Assembly: GCA_964483665.1 (NCBI GenBank)
Contig: CAZACP010000001.1
Location: 141,896 to 205,895 of the forward strand
Length of the DNA: 64,000 nt
Direction of reading: 5' to 3'
Source of the DNA: an uncultured Candidatus Saccharibacteria bacterium
GTDB lineage: Bacteria > Patescibacteriota > Doudnabacteria > UBA920
The translations under genes and the position numbers were made by a program. The notes beneath the pieces were generated by a model. It searched no databases. It worked only from the letters and a program-made list of their open reading frames with translations, and had not been told where the DNA came from. This document shows positions 200-30,687 of this stretch, piece after piece. Within the stretch, counting starts at the first letter, position 1. The number at the start of each line of letters is the position of its first letter.

Positions 200-226
200 G
201 AAAAACCCAGAATTTTAATTCTGGGA
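200..226 (-). terminator. rho-independent terminator-like hairpin (cccagaatt/aattctggg) + U-run for the 215..1150 gene
   Basis: 9-bp perfect stem at 206-225, followed on the minus strand by a T-run (plus-strand A-run 201-205). Confidence 0.45.
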
Positions 227-1150
227 GGAGGTAGTTCTGTAAAAATTTTTCAAATACTCAATTATCGCGGCTGAGGCCGGGACTTCTGGCTTAAGTTTAA
301 TTCTTGCTAAGGCTTCAGAATAAATTAAAATTATAGTTTCCCGGATTTTTGCGATTGTTTGCGCGTCTATTCCGTGCGTGTTTTTTTTAAACATCGCATT
401 TACTAAATTTAAAGCCTTTTCTTGGCTAAATGTTTGGTCCCCGGCTGAAAGGGCGGCAAGGCCAAGGGCTATATCCATAACCACATGCTGCTTGACTAGC
501 AAAACCGATTCTAAAATTCTTACGGCTTTAATAAAAAGCGCGTTAATAATTGGCTCATAAAATCCGCTATCTTCCTTTGAATGCTTTTTAATTATTTCCG
601 TTATTCGCGAGAAAGTATGAGCCGCAACTTCTACATGCAAGCTAGGCGAAGCGTTTTTGCTTGAATCTATAAAATGAAGTAATTTAAATTTCAAACCCAC
701 GGGCTTTCCCCTTTCGAAACTAGTTTGTGCGGAATTGTATATTACTGCTGCTTGCGGGTAAAATTTTGCCATATCTGACAAAAAAAGTACTACATCTCCT
801 TCCGCTTTTTTTCCAAATTCTTTTTGCACAAAGTTTATTCCGGCTACCCAAAAACCCACAAAGCTCATATAAGTACTTAGCTCGTTTTTTTCAAAGGGGA
901 TTTTTTTGTCTATGGGCAATTCGACGTTTATTTCGTTCGGGTATATTTTTCGGTTTGCTTTGCGGTAGTCGATTAAATAACCGTTTAAAATTCCTTGCAC
1001 GCCCTTTCTAAAATCCTTTTTTCGTAAAGAGGGCAAGATTTTGGCTAAATGTTTAAGTTGCCAAGAAAGTTTTGTGGAAGTGTTTTCAATCTCAAAAGCA
1101 GCTTTTTCTATGCGTTTAAGTCTGTTAATATGTCCTGCTGTTTTGTTCAT
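215..1150 (-). CDS. hypothetical protein (311 aa), next to the tRNA cluster; no confident family
   Basis: Long uninterrupted ORF with no catalytic motif recognised. Followed by a terminator-like hairpin at its stop. Confidence 0.5.
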   Translation of the reverse strand: MNKTAGHINRLKRIEKAAFEIENTSTKLSWQLKHLAKILPSLRKKDFRKGVQGILNGYLIDYRKANRKIYPNEINVELPIDKKIPFEKNELSTYMSFVGFWVAGINFVQKEFGKKAEGDVVLFLSDMAKFYPQAAVIYNSAQTSFERGKPVGLKFKLLHFIDSSKNASPSLHVEVAAHTFSRITEIIKKHSKEDSGFYEPIINALFIKAVRILESVLLVKQHVVMDIALGLAALSAGDQTFSQEKALNLVNAMFKKNTHGIDAQTIAKIRETIILIYSEALARIKLKPEVPASAAIIEYLKNFYRTTSSQN

Positions 1151-1409: not shown

Positions 1410-1626
1410 AAAAATACCTTGTATGATATTTAAAAACCTGCGTACAGCAGGAAAAAGCTGTCACGTAAATTTTGTCGCATTCGCAACCACGGATCAACTG
1501 TGATGGGGTAAGGGGCATTGTCCTTAACGTGTGAGGAATAGACTTCTAGTCTATTTTCAAAGGAGTAACGGACAATTGACCCGTGGTTGCGGGACCCGGA
1601 CTCGAACCGGGAACCTTCAGGTTATG

Positions 1627-2400
1627 CTTGCCACTACAATTTTCATTGCTCCCTAAATTTAGGGATTTGGGGTCTGGACTTTCTCTTCACCCTCGTGCAA
1701 TAAACTGATTTTCGCTCATTCCGATTTAAAAACCGGCGTTCACTCAATTCGTTTTTGCTCTTTACGGTGGGGTGCCTACCATTAAGTCTCTACACCTGCC
1801 TTCGTCAAGACTTCGGCAGGCAGGCCTTCTTAATTAAATAAGAAAAGGCTGCTTTCAATCCGAAGTTTTGGCGTAGGATTGGCTCGGGATTACCACCGCC
1901 AGGAGGCTTCCCCGAATTTGATAGGTTTTCATACCGAAGTTACCTTCGGTATAGCCCATTCTGTTATTAGTTCAAACGCATTTCGATAGTCGGCGGATTT
2001 TGGTTTTCTCTGACGCTTGTCAGATTCAACCAGGCTAATCGTACTACCGAACGATATAAAAACATCAAGCGGAAACACATAAAAAATATGAGTTTCTGGA
2101 ATATATACAACCGCAAAATCAAAATCATTAGCTTTATAGGCTTCCCGGCGCATAACGCGTCGGTTTGTCTTGGTTCGACGCACATCCACAAAATAAGATT
2201 TGTATTTGCCGTCGTACCAAGCGCATTTGACTTGCAATTTTACAAGCTTTCCTAACACATCGGCTATTAGGTCATAAGGCATTCGGTCGCCAATGGGCTT
2301 AGAAACACCCCGCCTAATTGCAAAAGCTTTAGAACGGTAGCTTGTTCAGCTATATCCCCTTTCGCTTTCGTTATCATAAGTAGCTAATAACAGGAATTTG
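1627..2400 (-). mobile_element. group I intron (774 nt) inserted in the anticodon loop of tRNA-fMet
   Basis: 5' exon ends in U and the intron ends in G (omega-G). Internal elements resemble group I R/S consensus (GTAGAGACTTAA; AAGAGAAAGTCC). Contains an ORF. Confidence 0.75.
1929..2282 (-). CDS. intron-encoded ORF (117 aa), putative homing endonuclease
   Basis: Entirely inside the tRNA-fMet intron. By analogy to intron-encoded endonucleases in cyanobacterial tRNA-fMet introns. Family not resolved by eye. Confidence 0.55.
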   Translation of the reverse strand: MPYDLIADVLGKLVKLQVKCAWYDGKYKSYFVDVRRTKTNRRVMRREAYKANDFDFAVVYIPETHIFYVFPLDVFISFGSTISLVESDKRQRKPKSADYRNAFELITEWAIPKVTSV

Positions 2401-2532
2401 AGCCTGACGAGCTGCCAATTGCTCTATCCCGCGATATAACTAACCAACATAAATTATATAGAATAATGTCCTTTTTGGCAAGTTTTTTAATATTAGGCCG
2501 GTTGTTGCCGCAGCGCTTAAATATTTTAAGTA

Positions 2533-8951: not shown

Positions 8952-9338
8952 TTATTTTTTCAAATCCATGTTTAGATTATTTAATAAGGTTTTTACGCTC
9001 GCGTCTATTAACGTGTCGTCCGCGCGTATTACCACTCCCCCGACCAAGCCTTCATCAATCTGTGTTTTATATTCCGTTTTGCTTAAAACAACTTTATTTA
9101 ATTCATTTAAAACCTTTACGTTATGCTCCATGGCGAAAGTTGCGTTGCCTTGGGTTACCCCGCTCTGTTTCTGCTCAAGGTTTTTGTACTCAGCTTCAAT
9201 TTCTGAGAATTTACCTAAATCGCCGTTTTCAACCAAGACTTTAACAAATCGTTCTAAAATAACGTCGTAATCTTTGGGCGCAGTTTCAGACGCGGCTTCA
9301 AAGAGCGCCTGCGCGTATTGTTTGGGGCTTAATTTCAT
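8952..9338 (-). CDS. atpH: ATP synthase delta (OSCP) subunit, short form
   Basis: Operon position between atpF and atpA. C-terminal GGVVIRADDTLIDASV motif of delta. Confidence 0.75.
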   Translation of the reverse strand: MKLSPKQYAQALFEAASETAPKDYDVILERFVKVLVENGDLGKFSEIEAEYKNLEQKQSGVTQGNATFAMEHNVKVLNELNKVVLSKTEYKTQIDEGLVGGVVIRADDTLIDASVKTLLNNLNMDLKK

Positions 9339-20530: not shown

Positions 20531-21055
20531 TCAAATTTTTCTTGAGTCGTACGCCCAATGTAAAATTGCCTGCCTTTGTTTTGGCCTGCATTTAAAGTCG
20601 CCTGTTTTACAATGCCTCATGACTTGCGCAATATGCCTTTTTATAGCTTTCCAGCGCTTTATTTGCCTTTTGTCGTCTTCGCTCCGTCTGCCCAAATAGT
20701 ACCTGCAGTACCATAAAAACCAGCCGCGCGGATCCTGTTCGTGTAGCCAGCCCTTTTGCTTCCAATACTTAAGCGGCTTGGAGGCGTTAACTCCAAAAAA
20801 ATTTAAATTTTTTTGATGGTTTGCTTCCACTGTTACGTCAGCGTTAACCATTTTGGCTTTTTTAAACCACTCTTTAGGAAATTCTTTTTGACAGTCATAC
20901 AAATATAAGCCCCCAAATACACCTAATTCCAACATTTGTTTGGGAGTTAGCTCGGGTTTGAACTCAGGGTCGAAATTTTTTCCGGTTGGTTCAGTTAAAT
21001 AGTAGGAATAGCCTTTTTGCAGGCTATCGTTAACTTTTATTTTTTTGTACTTCAT
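20531..21055 (-). CDS. conserved-looking hypothetical protein (174 aa), Trp/Tyr-rich, basic
   Basis: Uninterrupted ORF with good codon structure. Motifs ELGVFGGLYLYDC and GWFLWYCRYYLGRR. No family recognised. Confidence 0.5.
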   Translation of the reverse strand: MKYKKIKVNDSLQKGYSYYLTEPTGKNFDPEFKPELTPKQMLELGVFGGLYLYDCQKEFPKEWFKKAKMVNADVTVEANHQKNLNFFGVNASKPLKYWKQKGWLHEQDPRGWFLWYCRYYLGRRSEDDKRQIKRWKAIKRHIAQVMRHCKTGDFKCRPKQRQAILHWAYDSRKI

Positions 21056-22479: not shown

Positions 22480-22944
22480 TTAATTCTCTGGGTCTATTCT
22501 CTCAAATGAAACCAGTAGTTGGGCTTTTTTAGCCGGCTTGCCTTCATTTCCAAATTCGCCGTTTTCTAATTTATATTTGACATCTGTCGTTCTTACCTGC
22601 AAATTTTTACCGGTTCTGTTTGGATCGATGACTGTAAAAATTGTACCAGGCTGGTACCTATCTTTATATAATGCGGTTCCCATTGGGAAATTGATAATTT
22701 TACCTGTACGAACTAATTCTTGATACTTATTGGATTTAGTCGAAACATAAAGTTCATTTGAATCTGGTAATTTTTTATTTTCATTTGAACTTTTAACTCG
22801 AGACGTTTGGGGAGCATAATTATGAAGAGTGGTAATAGTATCAGAAATTCTATTATGCCGTTTAAAATATATAGTTTTTTTAGATGCCTTTATTTCTTCG
22901 TTTCTTATACCGCTGGCAAACGTATCTTTTTTAGATTCACTCAT
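22480..22944 (-). CDS. hypothetical protein (154 aa)
   Basis: ORF only; co-oriented with neighbours. Confidence 0.45.
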   Translation of the reverse strand: MSESKKDTFASGIRNEEIKASKKTIYFKRHNRISDTITTLHNYAPQTSRVKSSNENKKLPDSNELYVSTKSNKYQELVRTGKIINFPMGTALYKDRYQPGTIFTVIDPNRTGKNLQVRTTDVKYKLENGEFGNEGKPAKKAQLLVSFERIDPEN

Positions 22945-22960
22945 ATTTTTATGCTTAATT

Positions 22961-23551
22961 TTATTTAAGCTCTTTAAAATGAGCTCTTATTGCCTTGTTT
23001 ACTCGTGAAGCCCGTATCCTAACCGCTCCTGGGCTCTTTCCTATTAATATGCCGACTTCTTGTGGATTTAGATCGTCTAAATATCGTTTTTTCCAAACCA
23101 ATATATCTTCGTCAGTTAAGCCAGGAAGGATGTTTTTTAATACAATATCCAAATTTTTTTCACGTGATAATTTTTGAATCAATTTTTCTTCTTCGTTCAG
23201 ATTTTTGTTTGGAGCATCTCCCAAAGTGTCTAAAGAGTCGTGTGGTCTATTCTTTTTGCTTTTTATTTTGTTCAAATAATAATTTTTTGCTGTAACCAAT
23301 AACCACCAAAAAATATCATTTGGATTTTTTATCTCGTCACGCTTATTAATTGCTTGGGTTAGAGTAGTTGAAATAATATCTTCAAGGTCAAAAGAGGGCT
23401 GTCCTTTATAGCCTAAGCCTCTTAAATAGCCAAGAAGCGCTGCAGAAATTTCTTTAACCTTTTGTTTGTCTTCTAAATCAATTAATTTAAAAATTTTACG
23501 CTCCCTGGTTGTTTCTATATCATCACTGCCGAATTCAAGATTTTTTCTCAT
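22961..23551 (-). CDS. sigma-70 family (ECF-like) RNA polymerase sigma factor
   Basis: Region-2-like segment and a C-terminal region-4 HTH (EVGILIGKSPGAVRIRASRVNKAIR). Confidence 0.7.
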   Translation of the reverse strand: MRKNLEFGSDDIETTRERKIFKLIDLEDKQKVKEISAALLGYLRGLGYKGQPSFDLEDIISTTLTQAINKRDEIKNPNDIFWWLLVTAKNYYLNKIKSKKNRPHDSLDTLGDAPNKNLNEEEKLIQKLSREKNLDIVLKNILPGLTDEDILVWKKRYLDDLNPQEVGILIGKSPGAVRIRASRVNKAIRAHFKELK

Positions 23552-23677
23552 TATAAGCTAATTTTTTAATTGCATATTTAACATTTACAGTATAGCAAAA
23601 AACCGGCAAATTGCCGATTTTAGGTTTTGCGTTTATAATCTACTTTTAAACGTATCGGCCTAAATTAATTAATAAAT

Positions 23678-23718
23678 AATGTGGGAATTTTGCACATTTG
23701 TACAATTTTCCCACATTA
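23678..23718. promoter_or_regulatory. inverted repeat aatgtgggaa...ttcccacatt (10-bp arms) flanking a ttgtacaa palindrome, upstream of the sigma-factor gene
   Basis: Seen directly in the 315-bp intergenic region upstream of 22961..23551. Confidence 0.35.
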
Positions 23719-23867
23719 TACTTTTTTACACTAATGAGTTTTAAATCGGTAATCAGTTAATAAAATCAAAAATTCAATACAGGCTTTTTCCCATCGTTAT
23801 ATTTGATATAGGTAGTTAATATACGAATAATGGGTCACGCCCTTGTTAACTCTTACGTATGAAAAAA

Positions 23868-24383
23868 TTATATTTTGAGTATAACAAACCCTTCAACAGC
23901 CTTCGGCTTGTTTAGAGAATTTTTAAAAATAAATCCATCCTGTTTGAATTTTTTACCGTCTTCGGTGTAACGTACGCTTTTAAGCTGTTTACGGTCATAA
24001 AGAATTACTAAATCAATTTTGGCAGGTTTTAGTTTCTGTAGTTTTGGGAAATGATAGAATGACCAAAAAAACTGCCACATTATTTTGTTTTTCAGAGTCA
24101 CTGTTCTATCCAGTGCAAAAAAATCTATGCGCTTATTACCTACGTTTTTATAGTTTGTATATTTGACTTCTTGAATATATCTATCTGTTCCGTTTTTGCT
24201 AATAATTTTTATGAGCTCGTTTACGGTTTTGCCTTTATGTTCGTTTGAACTAATACACCTAATTGCAAGTCTCTTACCAAAAAAGTGCTTTTTTAACACA
24301 GCGTCTACGCTCTTCCCCAAAGCCTTATAATCCGGCATTTGTCTTATATTATAATTCGATAAGCTAATTTGACAGATTTTCAT
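23868..24383 (-). CDS. hypothetical protein (171 aa), possibly nuclease-like
   Basis: ORF only, with a weak D...D/E-x-K-like pattern (RIDFFALDRTVTLK). Partner of the HEPN-like gene. Confidence 0.45.
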   Translation of the reverse strand: MKICQISLSNYNIRQMPDYKALGKSVDAVLKKHFFGKRLAIRCISSNEHKGKTVNELIKIISKNGTDRYIQEVKYTNYKNVGNKRIDFFALDRTVTLKNKIMWQFFWSFYHFPKLQKLKPAKIDLVILYDRKQLKSVRYTEDGKKFKQDGFIFKNSLNKPKAVEGFVILKI

Positions 24384-24448
24384 TAGTTATTATTGGGTCA
24401 TGTCCCCATTTCTTTTTGATTGGGATTAATATCCACTTTATCAAGCTC

Positions 24449-24985
24449 TTATTTATAGAGCTTTAGCAATTCTTTCGCGTCTCTAATAGCTTCCTGCTGA
24501 AGTCCTTTTTTTAGTAAAATAAAATCTGTTTGTTTAAACTCAATACTATCTAACTTTATCAAATTTAATAAATAAAACAGGCCGTCCATAAGTTCTCTTA
24601 TCTCCTTTCTTGTAAGGTCAAGTTTTTTGTAAAATTTTTCCGCGTCATTTAAATGTGCATTTGCACTTATGTGCATTAAAAAATTATTTCTCAATTCCTT
24701 TAGCTTCATAACTGTTCCTTTGTAAGGATTCATTTTTAAACCTAACAGGTAATAAATAGAAGCCACTTCTTGATTATCACCCATTTTTATTTCTGTGAGC
24801 TTTGCTAAATGGCTCAAAACCGTATAAGTTAAACTAACTTGAATAGTTTTCCATGTAAAATTATTAGCTTTTAATAATTTTACATTATCATTTTCAGAGA
24901 AAAGAGCCTCTTCCAACTCTAAACACCTGTAAGCTGTCTGCAGTTCGTTAACAAAAGCATTTATAAGGATATCGGGACTATGCAT
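24449..24985 (-). CDS. HEPN-like protein (178 aa) with an Rx4-6H motif (RNNFLMH)
   Basis: All-helical protein carrying the R-x5-H signature typical of HEPN RNase domains. Confidence 0.45.
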   Translation of the reverse strand: MHSPDILINAFVNELQTAYRCLELEEALFSENDNVKLLKANNFTWKTIQVSLTYTVLSHLAKLTEIKMGDNQEVASIYYLLGLKMNPYKGTVMKLKELRNNFLMHISANAHLNDAEKFYKKLDLTRKEIRELMDGLFYLLNLIKLDSIEFKQTDFILLKKGLQQEAIRDAKELLKLYK

Positions 24986-24989
24986 TCTA

Positions 24990-26786
24990 TTATTTTTTTA
25001 ATACGGCTAAGAACGCTTCCTGGGGGATATCTACCTTCCCAATTTTCTTCATTCTCTGCTTACCCTTTTTTTGCTTATTTAAAAGCTTCATTTTTCGAGT
25101 TACATCCCCACCATACAAATATCCTGTAACATCCTTTCTTAAAGCTGAAATGGTTTCCCGAGCTATAATTTTTCCGCCTATGGCTGCCTGAATAGCTATT
25201 TCAAACTGGTGCTTGGGAATTAAAGTTTTTAGCTTTTCAACTAGTTCTTTGCCTTCGGTGGGGGCAGTAGAGCGGTGCATTATGGCTGAAAGTGCGGCTA
25301 CCGGCTCGCTCGCAACTAAAACATCTACTTTAACCAAATCCCCTACTCTTTCTTCTATAAAATCATAGTTTAAGCTGGCATAACCTGAAGACACAGACTT
25401 AAGTTTGTCGTAAAAATCTATAATAATGTTGGAAAGCGGCATTTCAAAAGACATATCTACACGCGTAGCGCCAATATATTTTATGTCCTTGCTTATAGCT
25501 CTTCTTTGATTAGCAATTTCCATTATAGGGCCTATGTATTCGCTGGGCGTTAATATATTTACTAACATCCATGGTTCCCAAATATTTTTTATAACGCTTG
25601 GGTCAGGCATTTCCGCCGGGTTGTGAATGTAAAATTCTTTGCCATCGGTTTTTTCTATGCGGTACGCTACCGAAGGTGCTGTTAAAATAAGGTCTAGGTT
25701 ATATTCGCGCGTAAGGCGTTCCTGCACAATATCCATATGCAAAAGGCCTAAAAACCCGGTCCTAAAACCAAAGCCTATGCTCGGAATATTTATAGGTTCA
25801 AATTCTAAAGCAGCATCGCTTAACTTTAACTTGCCCATACCTTCTCTAAGTATTGGGTAATCGTCCCCGCTGACCGGAAAAATGGTTGCGTAAACCATTG
25901 GCTTTACGTGTTTGTAGCCAGGAAGAGGCTTAGCAGTTTGCCTGCCTTCAAAAAGAGTTATTGTGTCGCCTACCCGGGCTTTAGAAACATCCCTAAGACC
26001 TGTAACTATATAACCAACCTCTCCGGTTAAAATTTCCCCGCCCCGTTCCATTTTTGGTTTAAAATAACCAATTTCAAGGCTCTCGCTTTCCGTGTCGCTG
26101 CCCATCATATAAATTTTTTCCCGCGGAAAAATTTCGCCGTCAAAAACGCGGACATATGCTACCACGCCGCGGTGAATGTCGTAAATTGAGTCAAAAATTA
26201 AAGCAGTAACCGGTTTGGTAGGGTCGCCTTTAGGGGGCGGAACTTTTTTTATAACTTCTTTTATTATGTCTTCCACGCCTTCGCCGGTTTTGCCGCTGGC
26301 GTATAAAATTTCTTCGTCCGTAAAACCAAACGCAGCCTTTAATTCTTCCGCGGTTTTTTGTCGGTCGGAATTTGGCAAGTCTATTTTGTTGACCACCGGA
26401 ATTATTGTTAGGTCGTGTTCGAGTGCTAAATACACATTGGCCAAAGTTTGCGCCTCAATGCCTTGGGTTGAATCTACTACTAAAATCGCGCCTTCGCAGC
26501 AGGCTAACGAACGACTGACCTCGTAAGTAAAATCAACATGGCCGGGGGTGTCTATTAAATTTAAAACATAATCATTGTCGCCAAGTTTGTAATTCATCCT
26601 TACAGGCTGAAGTTTTATGGTAATTCCACGTTCTCTTTCCAGGTCCATTTGGTCTAACAACTGGGCTTTCATGTCGCGCTGCTGCACGGTTTTAGTAATT
26701 TCCAAAAGCCGGTCCGCGAGCGTGGATTTGCCGTGGTCAATATGAGCTATTATACAAAAATTGCGTATGTTATTTTGTTCTGACAT
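24990..26786 (-). CDS. lepA: elongation factor 4 (LepA)
   Basis: GTPase motifs (AHIDHGKST, DTPGHVDF, NKID) and the LepA-specific C-terminal domain. Confidence 0.97.
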   Translation of the reverse strand: MSEQNNIRNFCIIAHIDHGKSTLADRLLEITKTVQQRDMKAQLLDQMDLERERGITIKLQPVRMNYKLGDNDYVLNLIDTPGHVDFTYEVSRSLACCEGAILVVDSTQGIEAQTLANVYLALEHDLTIIPVVNKIDLPNSDRQKTAEELKAAFGFTDEEILYASGKTGEGVEDIIKEVIKKVPPPKGDPTKPVTALIFDSIYDIHRGVVAYVRVFDGEIFPREKIYMMGSDTESESLEIGYFKPKMERGGEILTGEVGYIVTGLRDVSKARVGDTITLFEGRQTAKPLPGYKHVKPMVYATIFPVSGDDYPILREGMGKLKLSDAALEFEPINIPSIGFGFRTGFLGLLHMDIVQERLTREYNLDLILTAPSVAYRIEKTDGKEFYIHNPAEMPDPSVIKNIWEPWMLVNILTPSEYIGPIMEIANQRRAISKDIKYIGATRVDMSFEMPLSNIIIDFYDKLKSVSSGYASLNYDFIEERVGDLVKVDVLVASEPVAALSAIMHRSTAPTEGKELVEKLKTLIPKHQFEIAIQAAIGGKIIARETISALRKDVTGYLYGGDVTRKMKLLNKQKKGKQRMKKIGKVDIPQEAFLAVLKK

Positions 26787-26862
26787 AGGGCTATTTTAAC
26801 ATAAAAAGGCTTTATAAATAAAGCCCGGTAAGATCTTCGAATCTAAAATTTTCCTGTTAACA

Positions 26863-28449
26863 CTATTTTCTAAAAATGTTTAATATATTTTTAGACTCTG
26901 GAAGCTTTAATACAGATGTCAAAGCAACATAACTTACTACGCCCAAAAAACCGGAAAGGCCGGATTGAATTAGTATGCCAATAAAGGTCTGTGTGTTTAC
27001 CAAGGGCTCAAAAATTCTTAAGGCAATATAGCTGACCCCGCCTGAAACCATAGCGGACAAAAAAACTTTTAAAAAATTGTCCCAAAGCGAGTTTTCCGCT
27101 GCGCTTATAAGCGCTTTGCCGCATTCTTTTATTAAATTTCTTCGTAGGACTACAAGCAAAAACCCGGCGTTAAAAAAGCTGGCTACAACAAAACTTATAA
27201 CTAAGCCTTCGGCCTTTAGGTATTTAAATAAAAATATCGACAGTAAGACGTTTAAACCAATTGACCATAGGTTAGCTATAACCGGGACCTTGGTATTATG
27301 TCGGGAGTAAAAAGCTCTGGAAAATAAAGTGGTTAAACTTTGGCTAAGAAGCGACACGCTAAAAATTCCCAAAAAAGTTAGGGTTGTGATGGTGTTTTCC
27401 CAAGTAAAATTGCCCGAGCCTAAAATCAAACGTACAATAAACGCTCTAAAAACTATCATAAAGACTGTTACGGGTACCATCAAATAAATTATTTGCCTTA
27501 TGGTATTTTGTAGGCTTTTTACAAAAGACGGCTCGTCGTTTTTTGCGTACTCTTCGCTAAGGACAGGAAAAATAGCCGAAGCGAGGGCGTAAGCGAAAAT
27601 TCCGACCGGGACTGACTGTAAATTAAACGACTGGTTAATTGCGGTAATTGAGCCGGAAAGGGCTTTGGAGGCCAAAATTGTGCTAAGTATGAGGGTTACG
27701 TTAGCAAGGTCAAAAGTTAAAATCCGCGGAGTGTACAGCTTAAGCATATGCATAAAGACAGGGGTTTTAAAATGCGGATTCCATTGCCATTTAAAACCCG
27801 AAGCCAGTATGCCGGCCAGCTGAATTAAAAGCTGCGCTAATCCGCCTAGCAATACCCCATAACCAAGTCCCATAATGCCAAACTTTGGGTATAAAAAAAC
27901 AATGCCCGCAATTATGCCAAGGTTGTAAAGCAGCGGAGCAAAACTGGTAATTAGAAATTTTTTGTGGGCGTTAAGCACGCCGCCAAAAACGGTTGAAGCG
28001 GCAAAAATTATTGGCGTAATTAAAAACAGCCTGGTAAGCTGTAGCGTGCTAAAAAATTGTTCACCGGAAAAACCCGGAACTAAAAGTTGGGTTAAGGGCC
28101 TAGAAAAAATTAGCAGTAAAAGACACACAAGCGAAATAAAAATTAACGCAGCATCTAAGGTGGTATTTGCAAAAGCGTTCGCGCTAGCCGGGTCTTTGGT
28201 TTTTTCTTTTGAAAAAACAGGCAAAAAAGCCACGGAAAGAGTGCTTAATACAAAAAGGTTGGTTACAAAATCAGGCACCCTAAAAGCCGCAAAGTAACTG
28301 TCAGAAATTTGTCCTTGTCCGAAAGCAGCTGCAAAAAGCCTTTCTCTAAAAAGGGCGGAAATTTTAGTTGCAAGTGTAAATAAGCCAATTATAGTAGCAG
28401 CTCTTGCGACTGTGAATTCAGAGTCCCAAAATTTTAATCTTCTAATCAT
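26863..28449 (-). CDS. murJ: lipid II flippase MurJ/MviN
   Basis: 14-TM MOP-family protein with the conserved N-terminal region (AAFGQGQISDSYFAAFRVPDFVTNLF). Confidence 0.85.
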   Translation of the reverse strand: MIRRLKFWDSEFTVARAATIIGLFTLATKISALFRERLFAAAFGQGQISDSYFAAFRVPDFVTNLFVLSTLSVAFLPVFSKEKTKDPASANAFANTTLDAALIFISLVCLLLLIFSRPLTQLLVPGFSGEQFFSTLQLTRLFLITPIIFAASTVFGGVLNAHKKFLITSFAPLLYNLGIIAGIVFLYPKFGIMGLGYGVLLGGLAQLLIQLAGILASGFKWQWNPHFKTPVFMHMLKLYTPRILTFDLANVTLILSTILASKALSGSITAINQSFNLQSVPVGIFAYALASAIFPVLSEEYAKNDEPSFVKSLQNTIRQIIYLMVPVTVFMIVFRAFIVRLILGSGNFTWENTITTLTFLGIFSVSLLSQSLTTLFSRAFYSRHNTKVPVIANLWSIGLNVLLSIFLFKYLKAEGLVISFVVASFFNAGFLLVVLRRNLIKECGKALISAAENSLWDNFLKVFLSAMVSGGVSYIALRIFEPLVNTQTFIGILIQSGLSGFLGVVSYVALTSVLKLPESKNILNIFRK

Positions 28450-28497: not shown

Positions 28498-30687
28498 TCA
28501 TTTCTTTACTACCATACCCCAAAACCTATCTTGATTCAAGTCTGAGTTTATTGTAGTTTTTCCGAAAGCGTCAAAATTTTGGTCAAAACTTTTCCATAAA
28601 ATACCAAAGTTGTCAAAATTTAGATTATATTCAACTTTAAAAGTATTTGCTCCGGGTTGTTTTTGCAATAGCAGGCTAAAGCGGTCTAAATTTTGCAAAG
28701 CGAAGGGCAGTTTATAAACAATTTTAACCGATCTTTTTTGTCCTCCTTTAACTGTTAGCCAGTTGCCAAAAAAAGTTTTTCCCGATTCCTCGCCAATTAG
28801 CGTGCCGGTAATAACATCTTTAACTAGCCTTGAGTCCCACGCCAGACCGTCGGGATCAAATTTAAAGTTTTTGGAATCCAACGGTTCTATATTTTTATAG
28901 TCAAAACCGGTAACAGAAATTAGCTTTGAATTTTTTGGCACCAATACCCTTATAAACCTGGTATTATGAGTATGTTCAAGATCCGGCAAACGATTTTCAA
29001 AAGTCATAATTAATTCATTGCTAATACTGCCATCTGAATCTATTTTGCTGGAAAGTTTAAGCGTTTGGTCAACAAACAGGTCGCTCTTAGTGCCGCCTAA
29101 ATTACTGGATACAACTTCCAAATAGTCCCTGTCTGAATCCAAAATTTCCCCAGTCCAGTTGAACTTTGAAAATTCGGTCTGCAAACTCGGGTGACGGGAG
29201 TAAAAAATTAATTGTTTCGACATTAAATTGTTAAAAACAATACTTAGCAAGCCGTCTAGTTTTTCAATATTTAAGGACCCGAGTCTTTGTAAAAGCACCG
29301 GCATTAAATCCGCTAAAAATTGTTTGGGCTGGTTTTCCGGCGTGTCGTTTGACATTGTGGTTAAAACTTGGGTTTGTTCTACAAAATTTTCCGATGTCAA
29401 AACTACCCCATATTTCGGCATATTTACCTCCCCTGTTAGTTTTAATAAATCAACTATAATATTGGGAGTGAGCGCAACAATAATGTCGGGGGTTTCACCT
29501 CCTTCTTTTTCATAAAACTCTGTAATTTTTTTAGCAGAAAAAGGAAAATGGGCAAACCAGTTACTGTCCCTTAAGTACCAGCGGTCATTAACAGCTAACA
29601 GCGGCAGTGGCGGAACAACTTTTTCTGAAAGCTGTCCGTCTAAATCGTAAATGCTGCCCATACGAGTTTTTGAAATTTTGCCGTTTGATTGCTTAAGCGC
29701 TGCAAAACTCCCAATAAACCCGCCACCCGGCCTTAACTCGTTGTTATTTTGCATTACCAGCAAAATGTCCGGTGCTTTTAATAGGCTTTGGGCAAATAAG
29801 CCGTATATTTCGTTTAAGGCGCTAAAAGTTTCAGCGCTTTTTTTAATTTGACCTGAAATTTCTAAAAATTGCGACCTGTTGTCTTTTGGAACGCTGTCTA
29901 AGCTTACAGAACCAATTAAATTACTGGCAATTTTTAAATTTTGAGAAGCCAGATTTAAATGCGAGGCACTTTCTAAAATTATAGTTTTATTTTCTTCGGA
30001 AGAAGAAATTCCTTCGGCGGTGAATTTAAGCCTTTTTAAAGCGTTATAAAAATTTAAAGAACTCGCGCCGGCCTGGGAAAGCTCGGAGGAACTGTCAATA
30101 ATTTTTTTACCGTCAGAACCTTCGGGCAACAACGAAATTAATAATTTTAATTCTGCTCCGGAGTCGCTAATTTGTTTTTGCGCCAACGAAAAGCTTTTGT
30201 AAGCCTTAGCAAAATTGGAAAAAGCATTATTTGGGTCGCCTGAGCTAAGAAAGTTTTTAGCCTCGGTTAGGTCTTTTTGGCCTTGCCCAAAAAGACCCAG
30301 GACATTTTCTTTTAATACAATCCCTGTCGCAAAAATTTTAAAGCCGGTTAAAAGCAAAACAAGAAAAATACTGCTCAAAATTAAACCGAAACTATTCGTT
30401 AAAAAGTTGCGCGAAAAAAATAGTCTTGAACGCATTTTTAAATGCTTCGAGGTATTTAAAAACTCAAAACAAAGCATTTTATAAATCTTATGTATTACTA
30501 AAAGCAGCCAGTGTCCTGTTAAATAGCATAGCCCTATTATTCCGAAAACTAAAATCTCAAAAATTCTTACTAACTTCAGACGGATTTTTTTAAAAAGGCT
30601 GGTTTTAAAAGGAAGTTCAGGCTGGTGATAAAAATTTTTGTGAAAGTAAATTCTAAATTTTTTCATATTATTTGGACTGTTTGGCAA
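28498..30687 (-). CDS. large membrane-anchored extracytoplasmic protein (729 aa), possibly DUF4012-like
   Basis: N-terminal TM segments then a large soluble domain. Sits between murJ and ftsW. Confidence 0.55.
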   Translation of the reverse strand: MPNSPNNMKKFRIYFHKNFYHQPELPFKTSLFKKIRLKLVRIFEILVFGIIGLCYLTGHWLLLVIHKIYKMLCFEFLNTSKHLKMRSRLFFSRNFLTNSFGLILSSIFLVLLLTGFKIFATGIVLKENVLGLFGQGQKDLTEAKNFLSSGDPNNAFSNFAKAYKSFSLAQKQISDSGAELKLLISLLPEGSDGKKIIDSSSELSQAGASSLNFYNALKRLKFTAEGISSSEENKTIILESASHLNLASQNLKIASNLIGSVSLDSVPKDNRSQFLEISGQIKKSAETFSALNEIYGLFAQSLLKAPDILLVMQNNNELRPGGGFIGSFAALKQSNGKISKTRMGSIYDLDGQLSEKVVPPLPLLAVNDRWYLRDSNWFAHFPFSAKKITEFYEKEGGETPDIIVALTPNIIVDLLKLTGEVNMPKYGVVLTSENFVEQTQVLTTMSNDTPENQPKQFLADLMPVLLQRLGSLNIEKLDGLLSIVFNNLMSKQLIFYSRHPSLQTEFSKFNWTGEILDSDRDYLEVVSSNLGGTKSDLFVDQTLKLSSKIDSDGSISNELIMTFENRLPDLEHTHNTRFIRVLVPKNSKLISVTGFDYKNIEPLDSKNFKFDPDGLAWDSRLVKDVITGTLIGEESGKTFFGNWLTVKGGQKRSVKIVYKLPFALQNLDRFSLLLQKQPGANTFKVEYNLNFDNFGILWKSFDQNFDAFGKTTINSDLNQDRFWGMVVKK

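Follow-up and report, generated by a model that had tools for sequence, protein, structure and literature searches.

The window analysed here is a 64,000-nucleotide (nt) stretch of DNA from an uncultured Candidatus Saccharibacteria bacterium (contig CAZACP010000001.1, positions 141,896 to 205,895). In it, two small open reading frames (ORFs) between lepA and a sigma factor gene had been predicted to form a defence or addiction cassette. Both ORFs exist exactly as predicted, co-oriented on the minus strand: the first encodes a 178-residue protein (24449..24985) and the second a 171-residue protein (23868..24383), with lepA on one side and the sigma gene on the other. The most probable arrangement is, nevertheless, not a two-gene module: the 178-residue ORF is likely a solo gene of the HEPN_AbiU2 family, a predicted ribonuclease (RNase) gene that occupies a variable slot after lepA, and the 171-residue ORF, which belongs to an unannotated alpha/beta family, is an unrelated gene that happens to adjoin it.

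The family HEPN_AbiU2 (PF18734) was introduced by Anantharaman et al. 2013 (PMC3710099), and the 178-residue protein is a genuine, if divergent, new member of it. Pfam aligns its residues 88-141, motif included, to PF18734 with E=3.2e-5 and 23.9 bits, and the same profile is matched individually by all aligned members of its subfamily (20/20; best E 1.7e-13). Nine homologues carry a precomputed PF18734 match, and UniRef names the homologue P0035, from a Candidatus Nealsonbacteria genome, "HEPN AbiU2-like domain-containing protein". The subfamily is small and, wherever its source organism is named, comes from bacteria of the candidate phyla radiation (CPR). In 1.84 billion representatives, phmmer found 21 proteins at E <= 1e-3: the query's own entry, 18 relatives (136-190 residues, 29-41% identity, also given as 25-38%), an 84-residue fragment of the query and a 2284-residue protein matching in the motif region only. 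The E-values of the 20 relatives range from 2e-13 to 8e-4; a word-indexed search with the same query returned only the query itself. PADLOC, PHROGs and NCBIfam yielded no match to the 178-residue protein.

The HEPN motif R-x5-H, which the original prediction had pointed out as RNNFLMH, comprises residues 99-105 (codons at 24671..24691 on the minus strand, running from 24691 to 24671, as the DNA sequence shows). R99 and H105 are the sole invariant columns of a 20-sequence alignment (A1) and are still invariant in alignments A3 and A5, while N/D100 and K101 are nearly so, giving the consensus R-[ND]-K-x-L-x-H. Invariance of just these two residues throughout the family is what marks a HEPN active site. 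The motif as such is within chance, with R-x(4-6)-H present in 29% of shuffles of the protein; it is thus the family homology together with the invariance of the motif, not the motif by itself, that supports the HEPN call. The fold, too, is modelled as anticipated: the AlphaFold2 (AF2) model is wholly helical, with a predicted local distance difference test (pLDDT) score of 79.7 and a predicted template modelling (pTM) score of 0.80. A Foldseek search of this model against the PDB gave nothing significant, and its only coherent matches are the HepT HEPN toxins 5yep, 6m6w and 7bxo. Profile searches against PDB sequences were uninformative for both the 178- and the 171-residue families.

The original prediction joined the two ORFs into an inserted toxin-antitoxin or abortive-infection cassette amid housekeeping genes; the 171-residue protein would then be the antitoxin, modifier or co-effector of the HEPN protein. 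The local picture is compatible with such a cassette: the genes lie 65 nt apart in the same orientation, terminator-like hairpins follow only the second gene, both genes are lower in GC content than their flanks, and some HEPN families do occur in operons with enzymes resembling ADP-ribosyltransferases (ARTs; PMC3710099). The comparative picture is not. With tblastn, a HEPN gene was absent from all 19 further loci of the 171-residue family, as was a homologue of the 171-residue protein from all 9 further independent HEPN loci. In the genomes of CPR bacteria and DPANN archaea, moreover, the 171-residue family is surrounded by housekeeping genes, and PADLOC, proposed as a check on the protein pair, recognises no defence system in it. 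Because of this comparative context the pairing is excluded from the preferred account, and a two-gene cassette is considered very unlikely.

The synteny of the lepA region points in the same direction. In a relative whose LepA is 83% identical to that of the window (locus L011), the order is lepA, an unrelated 92-residue gene and then the homologue of the 171-residue gene, which thus stays behind lepA without any HEPN gene. Because of this order, the 171-residue gene can be regarded as the stable element next to lepA and the HEPN position as a variable slot. Beyond this, neither gene keeps fixed company: no neighbour is conserved across the 19 other loci of the 171-residue family, and any given neighbour of the HEPN gene is present at two, at most, of the 10 independent loci.

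What surrounds several of the HEPN homologues suggests mobility or conflict. Small GIY-YIG genes lie immediately upstream of the homologue at two of the 10 loci (L014, 3431..3811; L018, 3722..3961). At L016, a T5orf172/MUG113 gene, which is GIY-YIG-like, is found two genes upstream (1419..2015) and an integrase gene downstream; other surroundings include DUF4325, PIF1, helix-turn-helix (HTH) and Fic genes. A loose association of HEPN homologues with mobile endonuclease genes may be discerned here, the loci being too few for a firmer statement. Neither the HEPN nor the 171-residue family was found on viral contigs, and a phage origin of either gene was rejected on these grounds.

According to a second alternative, the 178-residue protein would be a housekeeping RNase, engaged in RNA processing or associated with the ribosome, that is co-expressed with lepA and serves neither defence nor addiction. 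HEPN domains do also function in cellular RNA maturation (PMC3710099), and the 4-nt gap without a terminator implies co-expression with a ribosome-associated GTPase. In addition, an antitoxin-like partner is found nowhere in the HEPN family, and the gene is identical across the retrieved contigs of the organism, an identity that is partly by construction, since these contigs were picked by an exact-protein look-up. A core function is, however, difficult to reconcile with a family as tiny and patchy as the phmmer set, with the HEPN-less slot of L011, or with neighbourhoods that are entirely variable and in several cases contain integrase, GIY-YIG or T5orf172 genes. The GC content of the HEPN gene is, at 0.302, also the lowest of its region (window, 0.388; lepA, 0.418). 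Patchiness, slot absence, variable mobile contexts and low GC content therefore describe an accessory rather than a core gene, and the housekeeping reading is judged unlikely. An ordinary, conserved housekeeping character, which had been named as evidence against a cassette, does apply to the 171-residue gene, whose family is conserved and stands alone among housekeeping genes.

For HEPN domains in general, dimers with a composite, metal-independent endoribonuclease site are established (Anantharaman et al. 2013, PMC3710099). By analogy, the solo HEPN protein could act in the following manner: two copies would dimerise, and their R-x5-H motifs (R99, H105) would together form such a composite site. 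The resulting RNase would most likely serve as a conflict or stress effector, kept latent or restricted to certain substrates by means that do not involve an adjacent antitoxin. As no antitoxin gene adjoins it, control would therefore be exerted post-translationally, through substrate restriction or in trans.

Several observations weigh against this account. The 23.9 bits of the 178-residue protein fall under the PF18734 gathering threshold of 26.8 bits; the pLDDT drops to 55-60 at residues ~101-120, directly after the motif; and the HepT matches are weak (E>0.1, probability <=0.84, template modelling score ~0.4-0.5, identity 12-15%). PADLOC misses not only the 178-residue protein but also three homologues. 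To our knowledge, no activity, RNase or other, has been demonstrated for any protein of the AbiU2 family. A toxin that is constitutively co-transcribed and has no antitoxin would be awkward, so that the protein may be non-toxic. The HEPN contexts are limited to 10 independent loci, several of them on short contigs, and the HEPN protein may have a partner that is encoded elsewhere or is not a protein. Finally, the HEPN protein of the Lactococcus lactis AbiU system, AbiUii, reduces resistance rather than conferring it: according to a review (PMC13064643, covering Dai et al. 2001), AbiUi by itself protects and is the source of resistance, which is lowered by the addition of AbiUii. The family name AbiU therefore does not imply a defence effector.

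The same behaviour of AbiUii provides the basis for a third alternative, a non-catalytic or modulatory HEPN protein that would act as AbiUii does in damping AbiUi and whose partner would be found elsewhere in the genome. The strict invariance of R99 and H105 and the near-invariance of the two positions that follow R99 argue instead for a retained catalytic site; furthermore, no large AbiUi-like nuclease is encoded nearby, and PADLOC reports no AbiU match. This alternative is accordingly regarded as improbable. AbiUii is also reportedly about twice as long as the 178-residue protein.

The solo HEPN gene thus resembles several known systems in part. With HEPN_AbiU2 proteins it shares homology over the motif region, an invariant R-x5-H with a polar residue after the arginine, and a domain of ~180 residues modelled as all-helical; the Sel1-repeat and restriction-modification operon associations described for that family (PMC3710099) are not seen at this lepA-adjacent gene. 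AbiUii (Dai et al. 2001, reviewed in PMC13064643) is the HEPN protein on which the family of the 178-residue protein was founded, but unlike in L. lactis no AbiUi-like nuclease gene is adjacent. The HepT-MntA (HEPN-MNT) toxin-antitoxin systems of type II/VII (5yep, 6m6w, 7bxo) give the best, though weak, structural matches and follow the same logic of an R-x4-6-H RNase motif. In contrast to these systems, the 178-residue gene lacks an MNT nucleotidyltransferase antitoxin, and its neighbour matches no nucleotidyltransferase family. The locus is therefore neither an AbiU system, nor a HEPN-MNT pair, nor a HEPN-nuclease cassette.

For the 171-residue protein, searches of Pfam, NCBIfam, PADLOC and PHROGs gave nothing significant. 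It has 5 metagenomic homologues (47-66% identity) and 16 genomic ones (38-51% identity), the latter from Patescibacteria (Portnoybacteria and others) and DPANN archaea (Woesearchaeota, Nanoarchaeia). An alignment of 21 sequences shows a mean column identity of 62% and 29 invariant residues, and its conserved motifs include R-C-x-x-S-x-E-H-K-G-K, G-x-D-R-Y, I-D-F-F-A-L-D and a C-terminal K-x-D-G-F-x-F. In the AF2 model, strands alternate with helices (pLDDT 78.9, pTM 0.80). The family neighbours at the 19 other loci are mainly housekeeping genes, among them those of Topo VI, ClpP, trigger factor, RNase HII, RIO kinase and RsmB/F, as well as methyltransferase, RuBisCO and HIT genes. At L012 (3..901), the 171-residue-family gene shares 4 bp with the end of a RuBisCO large-subunit gene, stop codon included, and is followed by DUF5654, NUDIX, NFACT-R_1 and His_Phos_1 genes. 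Altogether, this is an unannotated, strongly conserved, enzyme-like family that is separate from the HEPN gene and behaves like a housekeeping family.

Its earlier description as PD-(D/E)XK-like did not survive: the D...(D/E)-x-K motif is not conserved in the 21-sequence alignment, the topology is wrong, and no nuclease family or fold was matched. Low-scoring hits were judged to be noise, both for REase_MTES_1575 (E ~0.1 in 2 of the 21 members) and for DUF6897 (a 25-residue stretch in 6 of the 21, below cut-off). R42-x6-H49 was considered as a HEPN motif, since both residues are invariant, and was discarded because the protein is alpha/beta. Neither the 171-residue protein nor its 20 homologues matched a nucleotidyltransferase family. 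Shorter calls of the gene, of 156 and 143 residues, raised the question of a mutated partner gene; they are gene-caller differences, the DNA being identical in the contigs with the 156-residue call, and the 171-residue form is favoured because its N-terminus is conserved.

As a weak lead from the model, the fold of the 171-residue protein may be distantly related to ADP-ribosyltransferases or nucleotide-binding proteins. On this lead rests a further alternative: the family would comprise enzymes that use NAD+ or another nucleotide and have spread by inter-domain transfer between Patescibacteria and DPANN archaea, and the copy in the window would by recruitment have become the modifier or antitoxin of an AbiU2-type HEPN RNase that is coupled to lepA. 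Unlike the ART-fold proteins Tpt1/KptA, DarT, domain 4 of CNFy and the pertussis-like toxins, however, the 171-residue protein has no assignable H-Y-E or R-S-E triad, and the ART-like fold was not reproduced by Foldseek or by profile searches of PDB sequences. This recruitment is held to be highly improbable; if it were true, the locus would hold a new toxin/modifier pair of the HEPN-ART type in the genome of an episymbiont.

A further gene of the window, at 20531..21055 on the minus strand, encodes a 174-residue protein without a Pfam match. Its homologue at 9125..9631 of L034, a 1.5-Mb contig of an unclassified bacterium, lies less than ~3 kb from a gene of the 171-residue family; the shared proximity is possibly coincidental.

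The correction of a plausible misannotation is of some general use, as adjacency, small size and housekeeping flanks proved insufficient for calling a toxin-antitoxin cassette. The HEPN gene itself is a modest addition, one more case of predicted HEPN RNases encoded by accessory genes that are scattered over reduced genomes and have no partner, here in a genome of CPR type. The more open question is posed by the 171-residue family, which is enzyme-like, conserved and common to CPR bacteria and DPANN archaea, two groups with reduced genomes.

As for the transcriptional organisation, lepA (24990..26786, minus strand) is identified by its GTP_EFTU, EFG_C and LepA_C domains in Pfam. The ATG of the HEPN gene lies 4 nt past its stop codon, and a terminator scan found no terminator-like site between the two; the HEPN gene is for these reasons probably co-transcribed with lepA. 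The 65-nt spacer between the HEPN and the 171-residue genes (24384..24448, minus strand) is free of terminator-like sites and tandem repeats and gives no match in Rfam, and all three genes probably form a single transcription unit. The 316-nt spacer between the 171-residue gene and the sigma gene (23552..23867, minus strand) also lacks an Rfam match and folds with -67.6 kcal/mol (z = -3.3 vs shuffled controls). It comprises a long hairpin of 44 nt predicted 3' of the 171-residue gene (23676..23719, minus strand) and, just upstream of the sigma gene, a GC hairpin followed by a U-run (23601..23619, minus strand; CGGCAAUUUGCCGG + UUUUUUG). The sequence and fold mark the latter as a likely intrinsic terminator, its palindrome is flagged by the terminator scan as well, and it likely ends the unit of lepA, HEPN and 171-residue genes. 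The downstream flank (22961..23551, minus strand) encodes a sigma-70 factor of the extracytoplasmic function (ECF) type (TIGR02937, 48.3 bits vs a cut-off of 42.9; weak Sigma70_r4/r2 matches). An RNA antitoxin or repeat array, as in ToxIN-like systems, was rejected, the region 22900..25100 being devoid of meaningful tandem repeats and Rfam matches.

Near-identical contigs of the organism from different samples differ mainly in two clusters, one covering the 5' portion of lepA together with the spacer upstream of it (26500..27000, with as many as 81 differences in 500 bp) and one at 30000..30500; the remaining ~12 kb of the shared region show almost none. The clusters may be recombination tracts or may reflect assembly mixing in conserved genes. 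A special conservation of the HEPN region, suggested by "zero SNPs" (single-nucleotide polymorphisms) against many in lepA, was dismissed: the SNP hot spots lie in lepA and at 30000-30500 within an otherwise clonal population.

At the other end of the window, the 311-residue ORF at 215..1150, beside tRNA-Asp and tRNA-Met, had been proposed as a further defence-type gene; the ORF exists, on the minus strand, but neither Pfam nor PADLOC gave a match with it, and nothing bears out that proposal. A PD-(D/E)XK protein is indeed encoded nearby, inside an intron. ARAGORN, with introns allowed, identifies a tRNA-Leu(CAA) gene at 1584..2433 (minus strand) whose anticodon loop is interrupted by an intron of 774 nt and which the default tRNA scan had missed. 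The intron contains a group I intron match in Rfam (1651..1978, 64.6 bits) and a 117-residue ORF (1929..2282, minus strand) that encodes a PD-(D/E)XK homing endonuclease (PDDEXK_5, 111 bits; PADLOC "HEase", 141 bits).
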